13,592 bases of DNA from a virus (IMGVR_UViG_2778261231_000014:1-13592), one strand, 5' to 3'. Positions 1,732 to 13,592 are shown, numbered from the stretch's first letter. Notes: generated by a model not told the origin, from the sequence alone. Program-made: numbers and translations.

Positions 1732-2601
1732 TCAGTCCCTCGCCCATGATGGGATTTCAGTCTGGCCGTAGTCTTTGCCAGCGAAGTTCTCGGATACGCG
1801 AGACTGATTGCGGGTAGGCTGCTTGGCGCCCTTAGGCTCAAACAATCCCTGCCAGCCGTTAGCGATGCTCTGGTTTATAATTTCTTCAGGCTGATATCCG
1901 CTGCACTTGCAACGCTCGAGCAGGTTGATGGCCTGGGTAACCGTCTGCTGAGACTTGATCGGTTTCTTCAGGTCGCGACGATAATCGACCCATGACTTCC
2001 AGACTGAAACTGACAGCCATTCAGGAAGGTCAACACCAGCCGGATCGAACGAAGCATGTTTGGGGGATTTAGGGGGTTTATTAATATTGTCTTTATTGTC
2101 TTTTGTAATAGTGTCTTTTGTGTGTCCCCATTTTGGTGACAGGGTTGTCACTGTTTTGGTGACACTTTTTGTCACCACCGTAGGGACACTGTCACTACCA
2201 TGGTGACAGTCACTACTATGGTGACATTTTGGCGCAGGCTTAGTGCCCGGAATTACCCACTCACTCAGGTTTTTGTTGGGCCCGATCAGCATGCCGTCGG
2301 ACACCAAAACATTCATCGCAATGAGTTCGTTTTTGGCAGCGTTAACCTTCTGGCGAGGTAGCCTGGTCAGCTCAGAAAGTTGTGAGTCTGCTATGCGGTC
2401 CATCTTCTTGTTGAACCCATAGGTTTTGCGGCAAACAGCATGAGCTACCTTGGCCTGATTTTTGGTCAGGTTCGCGCCGATAAGCTCCTCATACAACTCG
2501 TTTGCCAGACGGGTGTACCCATCGTCTGTATCGGCCACGCGTTGCTCCTGTATTCCCGAAACTACAGCGGGAAAGTTGAGAATTTCTGCGGTGTTTGACA
2601 T
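1732..2601 (-). CDS. Replication initiator protein, lambda O-like N-terminal domain
   Basis: N-terminus MSNTAEILNF...ADTDDGYTRLAN...LTKNQAKV...RKTYGFNKKMDRIADSQLSELTRLP...GPNKNLSEW closely follows the lambda O N-terminal domain as I remember it. ATG 2601-2599 with GGGAG RBS; the track ORF starts at an upstream in-frame GTG at 2628. Iterons lie inside the central linker. Confidence 0.85.
   Translation of the reverse strand: MSNTAEILNFPAVVSGIQEQRVADTDDGYTRLANELYEELIGANLTKNQAKVAHAVCRKTYGFNKKMDRIADSQLSELTRLPRQKVNAAKNELIAMNVLVSDGMLIGPNKNLSEWVIPGTKPAPKCHHSSDCHHGSDSVPTVVTKSVTKTVTTLSPKWGHTKDTITKDNKDNINKPPKSPKHASFDPAGVDLPEWLSVSVWKSWVDYRRDLKKPIKSQQTVTQAINLLERCKCSGYQPEEIINQSIANGWQGLFEPKGAKQPTRNQSRVSENFAGKDYGQTEIPSWARD
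2075..2230. repeat. ori-like element inside the O-like gene: four to five roughly 22-bp iterons plus an adjacent AT-rich tract
   Basis: Repeated units TTTTGGTGACAGGGTTGTCACTG / TTTTGGTGACACTTTTTGTCACC / ...GGGACACTGTCACTA / CCATGGTGACAGTCACTACT / ATGGTGACATTTT at 2131-2230; AT-rich tract with repeated ATTGTCTTT at about 2075-2130. Same layout as lambda ori inside O. Confidence 0.6.
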
Positions 2602-2686: not shown

Positions 2687-3229
2687 TCATATAACCCCCA
2701 ACATTGACGTGACCATCGTCATCAGCGGCCCTACCTGCTCCGGCATGAGGCGGAACAGCGACGCTATACCCTCGCTTACCTCTTTCAGCTTCTGATGCTC
2801 TGGAGCGCCCAGAAGCACTGCCTGCTTAGCTTCGGCACACTCTTTCATCGCGGATGCGATCAGCGACATCGTGTCGTTCTGTGGTGCAAGGCGGTTGCGA
2901 AATTCCAGTGGAAGTACCGCCATGATTGCGGGCGTCAGCTGGCGCACGTTCTCGCGGTACTGCTCAGAGTCGAAACGGTTATCCAGAAAGCGAAAAAGTT
3001 TCTGGCGCGCCCTGCTGATGTCTTCCGGGAAGCTGATGGCGGTACCGCCCTGCTCCCGGTATTCGTTGATGATCAGTGCCGAAACGACGTCCTGATTGTC
3101 CAGCGCCGAAGACCATGCCCGGACCGCATCGCGGATCTTTTCGTGGTCTGGCGCCGCCTTAGGTTGAGCGCGGTTTATCATCGCTCCCGGGTGTATTCCG
3201 GTATTGTGTTGATACGCAAGTGAATGCAT
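2687..3229 (-). CDS. YdaT-like regulatory protein (CII-position analog of Rac-type prophages)
   Basis: Sits immediately downstream of the cro-like gene. Motifs EYREQGG and LTPAIMAVLPLEFRNRL resemble Rac YdaT as I recall it. Start could be ATG 3229 or internal ATG 3181. Confidence 0.6.
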   Translation of the reverse strand: MHSLAYQHNTGIHPGAMINRAQPKAAPDHEKIRDAVRAWSSALDNQDVVSALIINEYREQGGTAISFPEDISRARQKLFRFLDNRFDSEQYRENVRQLTPAIMAVLPLEFRNRLAPQNDTMSLIASAMKECAEAKQAVLLGAPEHQKLKEVSEGIASLFRLMPEQVGPLMTMVTSMLGVI

Positions 3230-3258
3230 TGCTTTCCCTTTCGTGGTTAGGGCCGCCG

Positions 3259-3480
3259 TTAGGCGGCAAAGATACCTGGATATAGAACTTCGCGAGGAAG
3301 CCCCGTCACTTCTTCGTACTTACGCATTTTTGTTACTGGAAGGCTGCCACCTCGCTTTTTAAGCATATTGATGGCCTGTGGCGTTACGCCGACCTTTTCA
3401 GCAAGCACCTTTTGAGAGCCGCCCACTGCATTAATGGCTTTCTCAAGCGGGGTGCTTGCGTTGGATTCTTTGTTGATCAT
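3259..3480 (-). CDS. Cro/YdaS-like small HTH regulator (73 aa)
   Basis: HTH-like segment QKVLAEKVGVTPQAINMLKK; GGAG RBS 7 nt upstream of ATG 3480; divergent from the repressor gene across an operator region. Confidence 0.7.
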   Translation of the reverse strand: MINKESNASTPLEKAINAVGGSQKVLAEKVGVTPQAINMLKKRGGSLPVTKMRKYEEVTGLPREVLYPGIFAA

Positions 3481-3597
3481 GTTTTGCTCCGCTCATGTGT
3501 AATCAACACCATGTTAATTCATGATGTGGATTAAATCAACATTATGGTGATGGAAAAAATCCACATGTTGTTTACCATGCATGGAGCGGAGGGTTTT
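3481..3597. promoter_or_regulatory. Immunity operator/promoter region (OR-like) between the divergent cro-like and cI-like genes
   Basis: Four copies of AATC(A/C)ACA or its complement at 3501-3508, 3525-3532 (TGTGGATT), 3534-3541, 3558-3565. 3525-3541 forms an imperfect 17-bp palindrome TGTGGATTAAATCAACA. A leftward TTGATT-17-TAACAT promoter candidate lies on the - strand. Confidence 0.6.
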
Positions 3598-4308
3598 ATG
3601 AGTAGCATTTCTGAAAGAATTAAATTTTTACTGGCAAGGGAAGGCTTGAAGCAGCGGGATTTGGCTGAGGCTTTGTCGACTAGCCCACAGACCGTCAACA
3701 ACTGGATAAAAAGAGACGCGTTAAGTCGTGAGGCGGCGCAACAAATATCTGAAAAATTCGGTTATTCTCTTGACTGGTTATTAAATGGAGAGGGTTCTCC
3801 AAAGAAGGATCTGGAGAGCAACATCCCGCCAGAGTCTGAGTGGGGAGTTGTTGATGCATGGGATAAAGACACCCCGCTTCCTGTTGATGAGGTTGAAGTG
3901 CCATTTCTTAAGGATATTGAATTTGCGTGTGGTGATGGTCGAGTTCAGTGCGAAGACCACAATGGATTTAAGCTGAGATTCTCCAAGGCAACGCTCAGAA
4001 GAGTGGGTGCAAATAGTGATGGTTCTGGAGTGCTTTGCTTTCCCGCTTCTGGTGACAGCATGGAGCCCGTTATTCCTGACGGCGCAACGGTAGCAGTCGA
4101 TACAGGCAACAAGCGGATTATTGACGGCGAACTCTATGCTATTAACCAGGGCGATTTAAAGCGCATAAAGCAGCTTTATCGAAAGCCTGGTGGGAAGCTA
4201 TTAATACGAAGCATCAATCGCGATTATGACGATGAAGAGGCTGATGAGGCAGATGTCGAGATAATCGGTTTTGTGTTCTGGTACTCGGTATTGCGATATC
4301 GCCGATAA
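3598..4308 (+). CDS. CI-like phage repressor (N-terminal XRE-type HTH plus C-terminal S24/LexA-like peptidase)
   Basis: HTH RIKFLLAREGLKQRDLAEALSTSPQTVNNWIK; S24 signature GDSMEP and a downstream Lys (LKRIK). Start ATG 3598 with GGAGGG RBS; in-frame ATGs from 3544 exist but overlap the operators. Confidence 0.85.
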   Translation: MSSISERIKFLLAREGLKQRDLAEALSTSPQTVNNWIKRDALSREAAQQISEKFGYSLDWLLNGEGSPKKDLESNIPPESEWGVVDAWDKDTPLPVDEVEVPFLKDIEFACGDGRVQCEDHNGFKLRFSKATLRRVGANSDGSGVLCFPASGDSMEPVIPDGATVAVDTGNKRIIDGELYAINQGDLKRIKQLYRKPGGKLLIRSINRDYDDEEADEADVEIIGFVFWYSVLRYRR

Positions 4309-7228: not shown

Positions 7229-7368
7229 GCGAAAGCCCACCGAAGTGGGCCCGCCATGTCCGGCCTCACCGACCAAAGTTACACCGGAAACAACATTAAA
7301 ACCAAAGTTAACCCAATGGGCGCTATCAATGGTCCGGGGATTCTAACACCCAAAAATGAGGATCTCAC

Positions 7369-10300
7369 ATGGAATTCTTTAATGTGGTTAAAGCCACTCA
7401 GAAATCCGGAAAGCAAGATGCAGTGGTCTGGTTCACTGCTAAAACCGAGGCTCGCGCCAATCTGATGCTGGATGTTGCGCTGGAAGATGCAGGTATCGAA
7501 ACAGGTCGGGGTAAGGACTACGCCAAACCGATTCGCACTGATTTCCCAGTTGTCGACGGCCTGCCGAAAGAAGGTGAAGTTGATTTTACCTGGTGTGATC
7601 GCTACGAGCTTCAGGACGATGGGCGCACCTGGCTGCCAAAAGCCGCTGGTGTGTCTACTGGTTCCGTTGACGCCCCCTACACACCTACTCCGACCGTAAT
7701 CGTTGAAGATGCGACTGCGTCCGAAATTGTCCCGGTTGAAAACCGTACTCCAGCGGTCCGCTTTGCCGTCCATCTGATGAACGATAAATACCAAACCCAC
7801 GTCACTAAAGAGCAGCAGTTGGCTGCCAGCGAAATGTCACTGGATGAAGGCAATACATATCTCCATAGCCTGCTTGTGGCAAGGAACGATGTGCCCGCGA
7901 CCGCCAAACTCAGCCTGAATGCTGAGTGGAAAATGATTCGGGCGGTTAAGGACATTTTCACACCCGACGAAGAGCACGAACCAAGATTGATCGCTGCATT
8001 CATGTCTGACTGGGTGAACACCGATGCCGGTGACCGCAATCAACTGGTAGAAGACTGGCGCAGTGGTAAGTTGCAGTTGCTCAAAACTGAAACCAGCAAC
8101 GCTGCTGACGTTACAACGGGTCAAGATCTCACTGTTGAGGACGGTATCCAGACCGACGAGAACGGCCGGGCAGAAGGTGGCGTCGTTGATGGTGAAGTCG
8201 ATACCGAAGAGCAATCCCAGCAGACACAGCAACCGAACCTGATCGTTGTTGCCACCCTGCCATTCCGCCAGCGCGTACTGGCTCAGTTCATCGGTGATGG
8301 TGAATATCTCTATCACATCGACGCAGGGCAGAAAAATGAGATTGTCCGCCTTGAGATGGACACCGATGACGCGTACGTCCAGAACCTGCTGCTGGCAGCT
8401 GAGAATGTGGAAGCATTCAAAAAAGCCATTGAGCACGATATTCATAAAGTCGTGAATGCCGTTAAGAAAGTCTTCCCTGTCGATGGAAAAATCCCTGAAC
8501 TCGCAACCTTAATCCAGTTTTTGAAATTGTGGTTCGCTACAGATCACATCGACCGCGGTATCCTCGTTCGCGAATGGGCCGCCGGTAATCGCATCAGTAG
8601 TGTGCAGCGTACTGATTCCGGCACTAATGCCGACGGCGGTTACGTCACTGACCGTGGACCTGACGCACACCACACACTGGACACTCTCGATTTAGAGATT
8701 GCGTGTGCCCTTCTGCCTATGGACTTCAACCACTTCGAGATCCCGGGCAGCATTCTTCGTCGCGCTAAAGAAATCGTGACCAAAAAAGAAGAACCATGGA
8801 AATCATGGAGCAACATCCTGCGCAATCAGCCAGGCGTTCTGGGTGTTAACCGCACGGCTATTTTTAACCTGGTACGTATCGCACCGGAAAATATTCATTT
8901 AACTCCTGTCGCTCACCTGGAATTTGTTAACCAGACCATGACAGCCGCGTTCAATTCCGCGGTCGAGTTATTGCCGTTGCATGAGGCTGAACCCGCAGCA
9001 CAGGAAATTCCCCAACCTGAAGGTAAGGAGTCTCCGCGCAAATCCTTCTGCACTCACGAAGAGAACCTGCAACGCGTGCGTGAAGAAGGAGCACGCCGCC
9101 GCGCAGAGGAAGCGGCAGCACAACCGCAGAAAGTCGAACAAGAACTGGTTAAAAATGTCGGCAACGGAATATTCGACGTTACGGCTTTGCTGCAGAACTC
9201 AGCAACTCATGGCACGAAAAAGGCTACGGAGACCACCAGCAATGTGCAGGTTCAAGAAACTGTCAGTGATGAAAAACAAGCTGGTGATGAAGTACAGCCA
9301 GGCGAAAGCAGTCTGGAGTCTGGTGAAGAGTCAGATACCAGCCAGAAGGACGATGTAAACCAGAATACGGATTCTGTCGCCAAAAATAGCGATTCTGTAA
9401 GCCAAACCGAACCAGTTGCAGCACAAACCGAGCCAGAAGCGCAATCTGACGAACCGGCTGTTGTTTATCCCGCTTATTTCGAGCCAGGCCGCTATGAAGG
9501 GCTGCCAAACGAGGTTTACCACGCCGCCAACGGCATCAGCTCAACCCAGGTGAAAGATGCGCGCGTTTCGCTGATGTACTTCAATGCGCGCCACGTAGAG
9601 AAAACCATCGTCAAAGAGCGCTCAGCGGTGCTGGACATGGGCAACTTGGTGCATGCGCTGGCGTTGCAGCCTGAACTACTGGACGCAGAATTCAGCGTTG
9701 AACCGGTGATCCCTGAAGGCGCATTCACAACGGCCGCGACCCTGCGCGCCTTTATCGATGAGCACAATGCCAGCCTGCCGGCGCTGCTGTCTGCCGACGA
9801 CATCAAGGTGTTACTGGAAGAGTACAACGCCACCCTGCCGCCGCAGGTTCCGCTTGGCGCTAACCTGGAAGAAACGGCACAGAACTATATGGCGCTGCCA
9901 GCTGACTTCCAGCGTATTGATGGTGACCAGAAGCAGACGGCGACGGCAATGAAGGCATGCATTAAAGAGTACAACGCCACCCTGCCGCCGCCGGTTAAAA
10001 CCAGCGGCAGCCGTGACGCGCTGCTGGAGCAGTTGGCAATCATCAACCCTGACCTTGTGGCTCAGGAAGCACAGAAACCGGCACCACTGAAAGTGTCCGG
10101 TACCAAAGCAGACATGATCCAGGCCGTGAAGGCAGTCAAACCAGATGCCGTATTTGCCGACGAACTGCTGGATGCCTGGCGCGATAACCCGGAAGGAAAA
10201 GTGCTGGTCACCCGCCAGCAGCTGAGCACCGCGCTGAATATTCAAAAAGCGCTTCTGGCACACCCGACCGCCGGCATGCTGCTGACCCACCCTAGCCGAG

Positions 10301-10758
10301 CCGTTGAGGTGAGCTACTTTGGTTTTGACGAGGAGACGGGCTTGGAAGTTCGTGTGCGCCCTGACCTTGAGATCGACCTGGATGGCGTGCGTATAGGTGC
10401 AGACCTGAAAACCATCAGCATGTGGAATGTTAAGCAGGAAAGCCTGCGCGCCAGGCTACACCGGGAAATTATTGAACGTGATTATCACCTGAGCGCGGCT
10501 ATGTACTGCGAAACCGCAGCGCTGGATCAGTTCTTCTGGATTTTCGTCAACAAAGACGAGAACTACCACTGGATCGCCATCATCGAGGCATCCGCTGAAC
10601 TACTGGAGCTGGGTATGCTCGAGTACCGCAAAGCGATGCGCAATATCGCAACCGGATTCGACACAGGTGAATGGCCAGCGCCAATCACTGCTGACTACAC
10701 CGACGAACTGAACGACTTCGACCTGCGCCGCCTTGAAGCGCTGCGTACTCAGGCATAA
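7369..10758 (+). CDS. recE: RecE-like exonuclease VIII (1129 aa): long N-terminal region, acidic linker, C-terminal PD-(D/E)XK nuclease domain
   Basis: Single long ORF with GAGGA RBS. C-terminal RVRPDLEIDLDGVRIGADLKT fits a PD...(D/E)xK signature; N-terminal DFPVVDGLPKEGEVDFTW resembles what I recall of RecE. Directly followed by an annealing-protein gene. Confidence 0.7.
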   Translation: MEFFNVVKATQKSGKQDAVVWFTAKTEARANLMLDVALEDAGIETGRGKDYAKPIRTDFPVVDGLPKEGEVDFTWCDRYELQDDGRTWLPKAAGVSTGSVDAPYTPTPTVIVEDATASEIVPVENRTPAVRFAVHLMNDKYQTHVTKEQQLAASEMSLDEGNTYLHSLLVARNDVPATAKLSLNAEWKMIRAVKDIFTPDEEHEPRLIAAFMSDWVNTDAGDRNQLVEDWRSGKLQLLKTETSNAADVTTGQDLTVEDGIQTDENGRAEGGVVDGEVDTEEQSQQTQQPNLIVVATLPFRQRVLAQFIGDGEYLYHIDAGQKNEIVRLEMDTDDAYVQNLLLAAENVEAFKKAIEHDIHKVVNAVKKVFPVDGKIPELATLIQFLKLWFATDHIDRGILVREWAAGNRISSVQRTDSGTNADGGYVTDRGPDAHHTLDTLDLEIACALLPMDFNHFEIPGSILRRAKEIVTKKEEPWKSWSNILRNQPGVLGVNRTAIFNLVRIAPENIHLTPVAHLEFVNQTMTAAFNSAVELLPLHEAEPAAQEIPQPEGKESPRKSFCTHEENLQRVREEGARRRAEEAAAQPQKVEQELVKNVGNGIFDVTALLQNSATHGTKKATETTSNVQVQETVSDEKQAGDEVQPGESSLESGEESDTSQKDDVNQNTDSVAKNSDSVSQTEPVAAQTEPEAQSDEPAVVYPAYFEPGRYEGLPNEVYHAANGISSTQVKDARVSLMYFNARHVEKTIVKERSAVLDMGNLVHALALQPELLDAEFSVEPVIPEGAFTTAATLRAFIDEHNASLPALLSADDIKVLLEEYNATLPPQVPLGANLEETAQNYMALPADFQRIDGDQKQTATAMKACIKEYNATLPPPVKTSGSRDALLEQLAIINPDLVAQEAQKPAPLKVSGTKADMIQAVKAVKPDAVFADELLDAWRDNPEGKVLVTRQQLSTALNIQKALLAHPTAGMLLTHPSRAVEVSYFGFDEETGLEVRVRPDLEIDLDGVRIGADLKTISMWNVKQESLRARLHREIIERDYHLSAAMYCETAALDQFFWIFVNKDENYHWIAIIEASAELLELGMLEYRKAMRNIATGFDTGEWPAPITADYTDELNDFDLRRLEALRTQA

Positions 10759-10763
10759 GGGGA

Positions 10764-11882
10764 ATGATGATGGAAAACACGAATATCGTAACCGCTGAAC
10801 AGCAGACTCCAAACACGATCTCAGCCAGCAATGCCATTTTCAACGTGCAGGCTTTAACCCAGCTTCAGTCTGTCGCCGGGTTGATGGCACAGGCAGCCGT
10901 AACGGTGCCTGAGCACCTCCGCGGCAATCCGGCAGACTGCATGGCCATCATCATGCAGGCGATGCAGTGGGGTATGAACCCTTACGCCGTGGCGCAAAAG
11001 ACGCACCTGGTTAACGGTGTCCTGGGATACGAAGCGCAACTGGTTAATGCGGTGATCTCCAGCTCAAACGCCATCGTTGGCCGCTTTCACTATGAGTACG
11101 AGGGCGACTGGTCGAAATGTGCCAGCAGCCGCGAGATAACCGTTAAAAAGCCTGCGAAAGGTGGCGGGACGTACGACAAGAAAGAAATGGTACGCGGTTG
11201 GGAAAGTGCTGATGAACAAGGACTGTCGGTACGGGTAGGTGCCGTTATTCGCGGTGAAAGTGATATCACCTGGGGAGAGCCTGTTTTCCTCTCCAGCGTA
11301 ATCACACGTAATTCTCCACTTTGGGTATCAAACCCGAAACAGCAGATCGCTTATCTGGCACTCAAATACTGGGCGCGCCTGTATTGCCCTGCAGTTGTTC
11401 TTGGTGTGTACACCCCTGATGAGATTGAACAGCGCACAGAAAAAGAGATCAACCCAACGCCGCAACGCGTTAGCCTGGCTGATATCTCAGGTGACACCGT
11501 CACAACCACGCAAAGCGCACAGGAATCGTCGGTAAATGTCGACTCTCTTGCCGATGATTTCCGCGAACGCATCGAATCTGCTCAGGACGTGGATAGCGCC
11601 AAATCGCTGCGTGCCGACATTGAAACGGCGAAAGCTACGCTGGGATCCGCACTATTCACCGAGCTGAAAAACAAAGCCGTAAAGCGTTATTACCTAGTGG
11701 ATGCACGCAACAAGGTTGAGGAGGCTATTAAATCCCTGCCCCAGCCCGACGAGCCGCATGCAGCCGAACGGTTCGCTGAAGCCGAGCGCATGCTTGCATC
11801 TTCAAAGCGTCACTTAGGCGATGAACTGCACGATCAATTCAGCATCACCCTGGCGGATATGAAACCGGAATACGTGGCCTGA
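10764..11882 (+). CDS. Single-strand annealing protein, Bet/RecT (Red-beta) superfamily
   Basis: ADCMAIIMQAMQWGMNPYAVAQKTHLV and SPLWVSNPKQQIAYLALKYWARLYCPAVVLGVYTPDE align by eye with lambda Bet. The true start may be the third ATG at 10770, which has better spacing from AAGGGG. Confidence 0.65.
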   Translation: MMMENTNIVTAEQQTPNTISASNAIFNVQALTQLQSVAGLMAQAAVTVPEHLRGNPADCMAIIMQAMQWGMNPYAVAQKTHLVNGVLGYEAQLVNAVISSSNAIVGRFHYEYEGDWSKCASSREITVKKPAKGGGTYDKKEMVRGWESADEQGLSVRVGAVIRGESDITWGEPVFLSSVITRNSPLWVSNPKQQIAYLALKYWARLYCPAVVLGVYTPDEIEQRTEKEINPTPQRVSLADISGDTVTTTQSAQESSVNVDSLADDFRERIESAQDVDSAKSLRADIETAKATLGSALFTELKNKAVKRYYLVDARNKVEEAIKSLPQPDEPHAAERFAEAERMLASSKRHLGDELHDQFSITLADMKPEYVA

Positions 11883-12204: not shown

Positions 12205-12402
12205 ATGGATGATATTTTGGTAACGTCAGACCTGACCAGTCGCTACAAAATTTCACGCAAAACCCTTTGGTCATGGCAAAGTGCAGACACAATGCCTCGG
12301 GGCTTCGTATGCCCGTTCCCACCCCCTGACTGGCCCGGCAACCCTAACCGCTGGCGCTCTGAGTCAATCAAAGAGTGGGAGGATAAAAAGAAGATAAATT
12401 AA
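12205..12402 (+). CDS. AlpA/Xis-like small DNA-binding protein (excisionase or integrase regulator family)
   Basis: [34 protein letters not shown]...[12 protein letters not shown] fits the AlpA/phage-excisionase HTH pattern. ATG 12205 with GGAGAG RBS; the track ORF starts at an upstream TTG at 12160. Confidence 0.55.
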
Positions 12403-13592
12403 CTGAAGGGCTCTCCGATGATCTCTTCAAGATGGCTCTGCCAAACGCGGAGCCAGTGTTTCTGATCATCGATATAGTCATGAAGGTTGTAATGCGCCAT
12501 AACCCCCACCATCTGATGCCCGAGCAGCTTTTCAATTACGTGCGGCGGGCAACCTAACTCAGAGAGATTTGTGGCTATCGTCCGCCTCATATCATGAAGC
12601 GACCACTCTGCCATACCTGTTCCATTCCAAATAGAACGGGCGTAATTGGATGCCACAGGTGAATGAACGGGCGAATCTTTGATCCCGCCATCAATTTTAC
12701 GTTGTGAAGTCACCAGGTGATTGGTGTTTATTTTCTTGAGGTGATTTCTGACCAGGTTAACGGCGGCGTCTGAGAGTCCCCTTCTAATATGTACCCGAGT
12801 TTTATAACTGCCCGCAGGCACGACCCACTCATTATCATCCAATCGAAACCATGATCTCTCACTAAGTCGAATCTCAGCCGTACGGCATCCGGTAAGCATA
12901 ATAAATTTCACCAGGAAAACGGACTCTATCGACATATGGCTTTTCAACCACTGATAGATTTTGCGCAGATCGTCATCGTCCATCCTGCGAGTTCTCTTTT
13001 TAGGCTTTTGCCCGACATCAGATGGCAGTAATCCCTCGAGTGGGTTTGAGGCGATCACACTTCTGTTAACGCAGAACCTAAACGCCCGTTTGCACAGCGA
13101 AAGCATGTAATGAGCCATCACCCTGCTTTCTATAGAATCGAAGACGTTGATCCAGTGCATTTTCGCTGTGTTATCGACTTTGACATTCTTCATCGGTTCG
13201 GCGATATGTTTCTCAAACACCTGGCGATAGTAATCGACTTTAACTAGCCCGTTAGCGATACAGTGCCTTTCAATCCAGTAATTGAACGCTTCGGCAACGG
13301 ACATCGCTTCCTGTCGGGTCTGCTTATCCAGCTTCACCTGCTCTCGCGGATCCAGTCCCTCAGTTAACCAGTTTCTGAATTGTTGGCGACGCTCTCTTGC
13401 CTGGGTGATACTCATTGCAGGATAATCACCAACATTGAGTTTTACCGCTTTACCGGCCCAGCGATACCGATAGAAAAATGATATTTTTCCGGCCTGGCTG
13501 ATTCTGGCGTTGAGCCCGTGCGAATCAGAAATAATCTCGATATCATCTCTTTTCTTGCCGAGCGCCTTCCTGAGCTTTGTGTCGGTGATCAT
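12399..13592 (-). CDS. int: Tyrosine site-specific recombinase (phage integrase, P4-like family)
   Basis: 397-aa ORF with catalytic-region motifs LTGCRTAEI (Arg), HDMRRT (His-x-x-Arg) and LLGHQ...AHYN (His/Tyr); N-terminal arm-binding-like domain. The ATG coincides with the window end. Confidence 0.9.

Follow-up and report, generated by a model that had tools for sequence, protein, structure and literature searches.

Where does the prophage represented by IMGVR_UViG_2778261231_000014:1-13592 begin its replication, and which initiator would its origin answer to? The questions are raised by a cluster of inverted repeats that adjoins an AT-rich tract in this 13,592-bp viral DNA (hereafter the window, meaning the whole stretch analyzed), all within a gene for an O-like replication initiator. 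Our analysis indicates that positions 2079 to 2226 very probably constitute a lambdoid prophage replication origin of the ori-lambda kind, located in the stretch of its own initiator gene that encodes the linker. The lambdoid ori-in-O design has been textbook knowledge since about 1979 to 1981, and one more example therefore matters little for general biology. In lambdoid phages, the origin occupies the middle of O and combines iterons with an AT-rich tract (PMC7466680); within the initiator gene, lambda, P22, and L have iterons peculiar to each (PMC8022706).

Repeat finding and Tandem Repeats Finder (TRF) delineated five 19-bp units on the plus strand between 2123 and 2226, every one an inverted repeat of the form TGTCAC-N7-GTGACA (Table 1). 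Their start-to-start spacings are 18, 20, 24, and 23 bp (mean, approximately 21 bp), and iterons 1 and 2 overlap by one base at position 2208. The original prediction had placed four to five iterons of roughly 22 bp here; the repeats and their location stand, and the description is corrected to five units of 19 bp spaced 18 to 24 bp apart. When TGTCAC-N7-GTGACA was searched with at most two mismatches, the window yielded six matches, five of which fall within the 104-bp cluster. Shuffled versions of the window gave 0.53 matches on average, and none of 200 shuffles reached six. The sixth match, at 4039 to 4057 in the CI-like gene, carries two mismatches and was set aside as a chance occurrence, since 0.53 matches are expected. 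Terminator-like predictions on the plus strand at 2134 to 2153 and 2146 to 2164 were also rejected, as by-products of the palindromic iterons; they are on the strand antisense to O, and no transcript is expected to reach them. An Rfam scan returned no match at or near the origin, the sole match in the window being to isrB, described below.

In the direction of the gene, the last iteron is followed by the AT-rich tract, the same order as in lambda. GC content is 20% across 2080 to 2119, and positions 2079 to 2118 form the least stable 40-mer of the 13.6-kb window, with a nearest-neighbor free energy of −41.9 kcal/mol against a mean of −56.0 kcal/mol (standard deviation, 4.0), or about 3.5 standard deviations above the mean. 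Both values bear out the claim that an AT-rich tract adjoins the repeats. The start of the tract, taken together with the last base of iteron 5 (position 2123), reads ACACAAAAGACACTATTACAAAAGA, and 25 of its 25 bases are identical to the AT-rich region of lambda ori; the same 25 lambda bases appear in primers of an earlier study (PMC3349717). The C-rich element CCCCCTAAATCCCCC beyond the tract is common to the window and the mEpX1 and GZ7/KO-TP1 origins. It is kept where a DnaC-type loader is the partner (mEpX1, GZ7, and the ES2 prophage) and has a similar form in P22, whereas it is missing from lambda and phi80, which carry a GAGAATTCTG..CCTCTGAC palindrome at that place. It may be a component of the origin or simply the PPKSP-encoding start of the C-terminal module.

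The open reading frame (ORF) of the initiator is open over 1732 to 2628 on the minus strand. Its product matches the Phage_rep_O family over the full profile (Pfam PF04492; E = 3.3e-38; residues 21 to 115, profile positions 1 to 95 of 95) as well as PHROG 678, "replication initiation O-like" (E = 2.6e-77). The protein is laid out as an N-terminal DNA-binding domain (N-domain; residues 20 to 116), a linker (residues 117 to 186), and a C-terminal domain (residues 187 to 289); the iterons encode residues 126 to 160, and the AT tract encodes residues 160 to 175. Residues T, K, S, P, D, H, G, and N make up 79% of positions 117 to 186, and large hydrophobic residues make up 9%, a composition that marks this segment as a hydrophilic linker joining two domains. 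The repeats and the AT tract thus lie, as had been proposed, inside a low-complexity linker of the initiator gene.

We compared this arrangement with that of lambda, whose origin in gene O (NC_001416, 39034 to 39160) comprises ITN1 to ITN4 plus an AT-rich tract of 38 to 40 bp. The lambda iterons are annotated at 39034, 39054, 39078, and 39101; their spacings, 20, 24, and 23 bp, are those of iterons 2 to 5 in the window. The Phage_rep_O N-domains are 58.5% identical over residues 1 to 118, both origins use 19-bp inverted repeats with a central A-tract, the distance from iterons to AT tract is equal, and the two origins are oriented alike with respect to the gene and to early transcription. The differences lie elsewhere: lambda has four iterons, not five, with half-sites ATCCCT/AGGGAT in place of TGTCAC/GTGACA; its recognition helix is LPVKRCNEAKLEL, while that of the window is LPRQKVNAAKNEL; to the right of the AT tract, it has a GAGAATTCTGGCGAATCCTCTGAC palindrome where the window has CCCCCTAAATCCCCC; and its C-terminal domain is unrelated, with P as the partner instead of a DnaC-like AAA+ loader. 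Taken together, the Phage_rep_O domain, the order of iterons and AT tract, the lambda register, the 25-base identity, and the downstream DnaC-like loader support the lambda-type ori-in-O arrangement put forward in the original prediction.

The register extends well beyond lambda. A gap-free alignment anchored on ACACAAAAGA placed the iterons of lambda, phi80, P22, mEpX1, GZ7, mEp043, Proteus phage V3, and the window in one register, and among these aligned origins only the half-site hexamers differ. The P22 origin (gene 18; BK000583, rep_origin 32840 to 32984) has the same layout, and its AT tract and ACCCCCTTACCCCC are nearer to the window than those of lambda; its half-sites, however, are TTTACC/GGTAAA (P22 and GZ7 together, TT(T)ACC/GGTAA(A)), its N-domain is only 48% identical, and its partner, gp12, is a DnaB-type helicase rather than a loader. 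The phi80 origin (gene 15; JX871397, with four annotated gp15 binding sites) likewise lies in the initiator gene in the same register, and, immediately upstream of O, the window carries a phi80-type cII gene as well as the M3 (oop-like) RNA gene of phi80. In contrast, the half-sites of phi80 are TTCCCG/CGGGAA, its N-domain is 36 to 42% identical, the sequence of its AT tract is different, and its partner, gp14, is lambda P-like.

Closer relatives were found in mEpX1, N7, and Hafnia phage Pocitis76, whose unannotated origins share with the window the C-terminal type and the DnaC-like partner (57 to 62% identity), along with the AT tract, the C-rich element, and the register. They differ in the half-site, TGTCTC/GAGACA, which is one base from TGTCAC, and in the helix, which is LSRQNVNKAKKEL and not LPRQKVNAAKNEL. 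Passing from the window to the mEpX1 class, A becomes T at half-site position 5; at the start of the helix P becomes S and K becomes N, and two further substitutions follow later in the helix. Judged by sequence, the mEpX1 group is the nearest neighboring specificity class. The phages mEp043, SEN22, and Proteus vB_BPM-V3 have the TGTCAC-N7-GTGACA half-sites, the LPRQKVN helix, and the same beginning of the AT tract as the window, but four iterons, unrelated C-terminal domains, and other partners. As for the fifth iteron, the Shiga toxin (Stx) phages 933W and P27 have six iterons, the extra ones lying distal to the AT tract and adding residues to the O linker (PMC7466680); the window has one such extra distal iteron. 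The iterons and O proteins of these Stx phages belong to the lambda specificity class, unlike those of the window. Iteron plasmids (P1, R6K, RK2, and pSC101, with Rep_3-type initiators) also place an array of initiator-binding repeats beside an AT-rich unwinding element, but their repeats are direct, are bound by monomers, and lie outside the rep gene (PMC5043065). An iteron plasmid origin of the Rep_3/RepA type was rejected for the window because its units are inverted and lie within the initiator gene, and because the initiator is of the Phage_rep_O family and not Rep_3.

To relate half-site to initiator, we fetched 113 loci and, in the 102 complete O-like ORFs that they yielded, set the dominant palindrome arm in the linker against the predicted recognition helix. 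The half-site tracked the helix without exception in the 102 ORFs: the helix LPRQKVN went with TGTCAC (89 of 89), LSRQNVN with TGTCTC or AGTCTC (4 of 4), and the lambda helix LPVKRCN with ATCCCT (4 of 4), the last serving as a positive control for the method. The earlier suggestion that an iteron sequence unlike that of lambda implies a different initiator specificity gains support from this covariation. In specificity, the TGTCAC half-site and the LPRQKVN helix thus appear to be matched to each other, and this pair differs from the pairs of lambda, phi80, P22, and the mEpX1 group.

The 89 genes of the TGTCAC class carry eight mutually unrelated C-terminal clusters, which indicates that the iterons move together with the N-domain, independently of the remainder of the gene. 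The partners of these initiators vary as well, including the DnaC-like loader of the window, an ES18-type primase/helicase (mEp043 and SEN22), and a DnaB-type helicase (Proteus phage vB_BPM-V3). Klebsiella phage GZ7 presents the converse pattern: its C-terminal domain is 76% identical in amino acid sequence to that of the window and the AT tract is common to both, while its N-domain is 52% identical and its iterons are other ones. At the DNA level, similarity of approximately 79% to Klebsiella phages GZ7, RCIP0034, and 6 LV-2017 spans 1732 to 2123 and ends where the iterons start; similarity to phi80 begins at approximately 2588, within the first codons of O. These boundaries at 2123 and approximately 2588 suggest that the O gene was assembled from at least three modules. 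Furthermore, the GZ7 pattern and the eight C-terminal types suggest that the N-domain is exchanged together with its iterons as a single module, with the conserved AT tract as the recombination junction.

An exact pattern of the two AT-proximal iterons was found in 20 species-representative genomes across Enterobacterales, in genera that include Xenorhabdus, Photorhabdus, Serratia, Arsenophonus, Erwinia, Pantoea, Providencia, Enterobacter, and Klebsiella. Nineteen of the 20 carry it within an O-like ORF whose product has the LPRQKVN helix, and the AT-rich anchor keeps a constant offset throughout the 20, 41 nucleotides from the start of the pattern. The exception, locus L102 on the 275-kb plasmid unnamed4 of Klebsiella sp. 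WOUb02, has an insertion sequence of the IS3 family in its O-like gene just upstream of a complete iteron array. The IS3-family insertion ruled this locus out as a free-standing origin, that is, iterons without an N-domain, and no free-standing copy of the origin occurs among these 20 genomes. The region concerned (2920 to 4240 of that locus) contains transposase ORFs at 2920 to 3675 and 3789 to 4088, and the insertion cuts off the N-domain from the iterons, the AT tract, and the C-terminal half. A prophage of Escherichia coli ES2 (NZ_CM184352) carries the same iteron class with about six iterons; directly upstream of its O-like gene, and overlapping it, is a gene of the ParB/RepB/Spo0J family, an unusual neighbor for a lambdoid replication module.

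With the half-site and helix thus paired, the proposed origin can be set against other explanations of the same DNA. The repeats could reflect nothing but a T/K/S/V-rich linker that the protein needs, the DNA itself being functionless; the region is, after all, translated, in part into a VTKSVTKTVT-like low-complexity peptide. The five iterons, however, are read in frames 0, 0, 2, 2, and 1 and encode CHHSSDC, CHHGSDS, SVPTVVT, SVTKTVT, and LSPKWGH, unrelated peptides in three reading frames, and inverted-repeat symmetry is meaningless for a peptide. In a sample of the class drawn from phage records and IMG/VR contigs (52 distinct origins, 208 iterons), the outer hexamers hold 1.0 to 2.0 bits of information per position, whereas spacer positions 9 to 13 hold 0.6 to 0.9 bits, with an A-tract preferred. 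Conserved arms around a variable spacer are the signature expected of a dimer binding site. Iteron copy number ranges from three to six among close relatives, which fits a linker that tolerates insertions and speaks against a peptide repeat, as does the covariation of half-site and helix over 102 genes. The repeats, as far as their sequences tell, are constrained as DNA and not as peptide; frame shifts, dyad symmetry, and covariation together exclude a pure peptide repeat, to which we give hardly any probability.

Two other explanations accept the repeats as initiator-binding DNA, now or in the past, and are best weighed together with the points that tell against a working origin. One arm mismatch is present in two of the five iterons, and the terminal base of iteron 1 is altered. 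The distal extra iterons of Stx phages are weakly bound (PMC7466680), and our search found no published binding or replication experiment for the TGTCAC iteron class. A single-sequence AlphaFold2 model of the O-like protein was unusable (mean predicted local distance difference test score [pLDDT], 41; predicted template modeling score [pTM], 0.25), and a PDB sequence search with this protein returned no homologue at E ≤ 1. A simple scan of the cI-cro interval found no sigma-70 consensus (pR-type) promoter, so the case for transcriptional activation of the origin comes from gene order alone. Finally, the element is a prophage in a chromosome. On this last ground the array might be a relic, an origin by descent that no longer works in a defective or never-induced prophage and is kept only as coding sequence; the window is >99% identical to chromosomal prophages, only 10 of 5,426 complete E. 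coli genomes contain this very allele, and decayed copies exist elsewhere, such as the disrupted O gene of the Klebsiella plasmid. Such decay is not what the window itself presents: the O ORF, the loader ORF, the five iterons, and the AT tract are all intact, the O and loader genes overlap in a manner suggestive of translational coupling, the neighboring immunity, recombination, and integrase genes are intact ORFs, and near-identical copies (99 to 100% N-domain identity) are found on viral contigs of 46 to 51 kb. We therefore regard a relic as unlikely. It is more improbable still that the O-binding sites serve chiefly for autoregulation of O, as a transcriptional roadblock, or for titration or exclusion of phages of the same specificity. 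Plasmid-borne lambda iterons with oop do inhibit rep-lambda phages with no need for the AT-rich tract (PMC3349717), and an oop-like RNA gene stands beside O in the window too. Yet such a function would be an added role and not an alternative, and a regulatory array would not require an AT tract that matches the lambda unwinding region base for base and that sits at a fixed offset in 20 of 20 genomes.

How the origin would work can be outlined from lambda, where O dimers bind and bend the 19-bp inverted repeats and, on supercoiled DNA, open the adjacent AT region of approximately 40 bp, and where pR transcription across the region activates the origin (PMC5043065). By analogy, we infer binding, melting, loader recruitment, and origin firing for the window. 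Early rightward-type transcription through the cro-like, cII-like, O, and loader genes would, by homology with lambda, make the O-like protein, and dimers of its Phage_rep_O N-domain would bind the palindromic iterons with their central A-tracts. Iterons 2 to 5 would be occupied, with the distal iteron 1 perhaps bound more weakly, as in the Stx phages. The bent nucleoprotein complex on supercoiled DNA could then open the adjoining 44-bp AT tract (2079 to 2122), after which the C-terminal domain may recruit the phage DnaC-like loader, and thereby host DnaB, to the separated strands. The iterons and the AT tract double as coding sequence for the linker of the initiator, which is hydrophilic and tolerant.

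Beyond the window, we consider it reasonably likely that TGTCAC-N7-GTGACA and LPRQKVN define a distinct, uncharacterized lambdoid replication-specificity class, widespread in Enterobacterales (its hosts number at least 20 species and range from Escherichia to Xenorhabdus, Arsenophonus, and Providencia) and differing near-minimally from the mEpX1 class. Sf101, PhiR12, and Erwinia phages phiEt88 and Midgardsormr38 probably belong to it too, an assignment made by N-domain similarity only. No origin feature is annotated in the records of mEp043, SEN22, or vB_BPM-V3, and the Sf101 genome paper neither mentions iterons nor discusses an origin. A full-text search for the iteron strings returned unrelated primers only and no phage paper; older subscription literature was outside its reach, and an earlier description is possible. 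If the class is real, the window and the mEpX1 class would offer a naturally occurring minimal pair from which to work out how iterons are read by O-type initiators. The series of helix and half-site pairs (lambda ATCCCT, phi80 TTCCCG, P22/GZ7 TTACC, mEpX1 TGTCTC, and window TGTCAC) could inform experimental work on how O recognizes iterons, as well as the design of orthogonal lambda-dv-type replicons. As a replication-specificity class, one that is common in enterobacterial prophages, it is probably an incompatibility or exclusion class as well. Moreover, the coordinates (iterons, 2123 to 2226; unwinding tract, 2079 to 2122) supply a precise origin annotation for a prophage family whose public records have none.

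Table 1. Features of the putative origin and its surroundings in the window
Feature	Positions	Strand	Sequence	Remarks
DnaC/IstB-like AAA+ helicase loader gene	875-1747	minus		Start overlaps the O stop codon by 16 nt
O-like replication initiator gene	1732-2601	minus		289 aa from ATG at 2601; GGGAG ribosome-binding site 8 nt upstream
C-rich element	2062-2076	minus	CCCCCTAAATCCCCC (coding strand)	Directly after the AT tract; encodes PPKSP, start of the C-terminal module
AT-rich tract, presumed DNA unwinding element	2079-2122	minus	CACAAAAGACACTATTACAAAAGACAATAAAGACAATATTAATA (coding strand)	44 bp; based on GC content, stability, and lambda identity
Iteron 5	2123-2141	minus	TGTCCCCATTTTGGTGACA (plus strand); TGTCACCAAAATGGGGACA (coding strand)	Adjoins the AT tract; register of lambda ITN4
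Iteron 4	2146-2164	minus	TGTCACTGTTTTGGTGACA (plus strand); TGTCACCAAAACAGTGACA (coding strand)	Arms perfectly palindromic; register of lambda ITN3
Iteron 3	2170-2188	minus	TGTCACCACCGTAGGGACA (plus strand); TGTCCCTACGGTGGTGACA (coding strand)	Register of lambda ITN2
Iteron 2	2190-2208	minus	TGTCACTACCATGGTGACA (plus strand); TGTCACCATGGTAGTGACA (coding strand)	Register of lambda ITN1
Iteron 1	2208-2226	minus	AGTCACTACTATGGTGACA (plus strand); TGTCACCATAGTAGTGACT (coding strand)	Most distant from the AT tract; extra relative to the four of lambda
Phage_rep_O N-domain coding region	2254-2544	minus	TRLPRQKVNAAKNELIAM (predicted recognition helix)	Helix covaries with the TGTCAC half-site
phi80-type cII gene	2687-3229	minus		180 aa; Pfam "YdaT_toxin"; PHROG "CII-like transcriptional activator"
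cro-like helix-turn-helix (HTH) gene	3259-3480	minus		HTH_3; "YdaS_toxin" just under the Pfam cutoff
CI/LexA-type repressor gene	3544-4308	plus		Divergent from the cro-like gene

The genes around the origin are arranged as cro-like, cII-like, O, and loader, all on the minus strand and next to a divergent CI-like gene, an order that fits an early rightward operon. The loader matches Pfam PF01695 (E = 1.8e-16) and PHROG 50 (E = 1.3e-83) and is the presumed partner of the C-terminal domain of O. Position and phi80 homology identify the genes with Pfam "toxin" names at 2687 to 3480 as cII and cro of a lambdoid immunity region.

Beside O, an oop-like antisense RNA gene is located at 2576 to 2680 on the plus strand. 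Positions 2588 to 2690 are 100% identical to the phi80 region with the annotated M3 RNA ("homolog of lambda oop RNA"). The predicted RNA, of approximately 60 to 70 nucleotides, is bracketed by a promoter-like TTGAGA-17-CATACT (2576 to 2604) and a strong terminator (stem at 2637 to 2670 plus a T-run), and its folding energy is −23.4 kcal/mol (z score, −3.9). It would start approximately 10 nucleotides upstream of the O ATG and run antisense across the O leader and the cII/O intergenic region.

Farther along the window are KilA-N, RecE-like, RecT, and integrase genes. The RecE-like ORF (7369 to 10758, plus strand) is unusually long, at 1,129 amino acids, with an Exonuc_VIII match at its N terminus and a PDDEXK-like DUF3799 C terminus; it is followed by RecT (10764 to 11882), a DUF4060 protein, and, at the end of the window, the integrase (12399 to 13592, minus strand). 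A Rac-like recombination and integration arm is thus joined to a phi80-like cII/oop segment. The Rac prophage with oriJ was considered as the identity of the window on account of its RecE-, RecT-, YdaS-, and YdaT-type genes, and was not favored: matches to K-12 cover only 2569 to 2640, and they are phi80-derived segments in strains of the DH5alpha/DH10B type. The Rac initiator, YdaU, is not known to be O-like. Just upstream of the RecE-like ORF, on the opposite strand, the Rfam match to the Hfq-binding small RNA isrB (7230 to 7327, minus strand) had a score of 38.2 bits (gathering score, 35; E = 6e-4).

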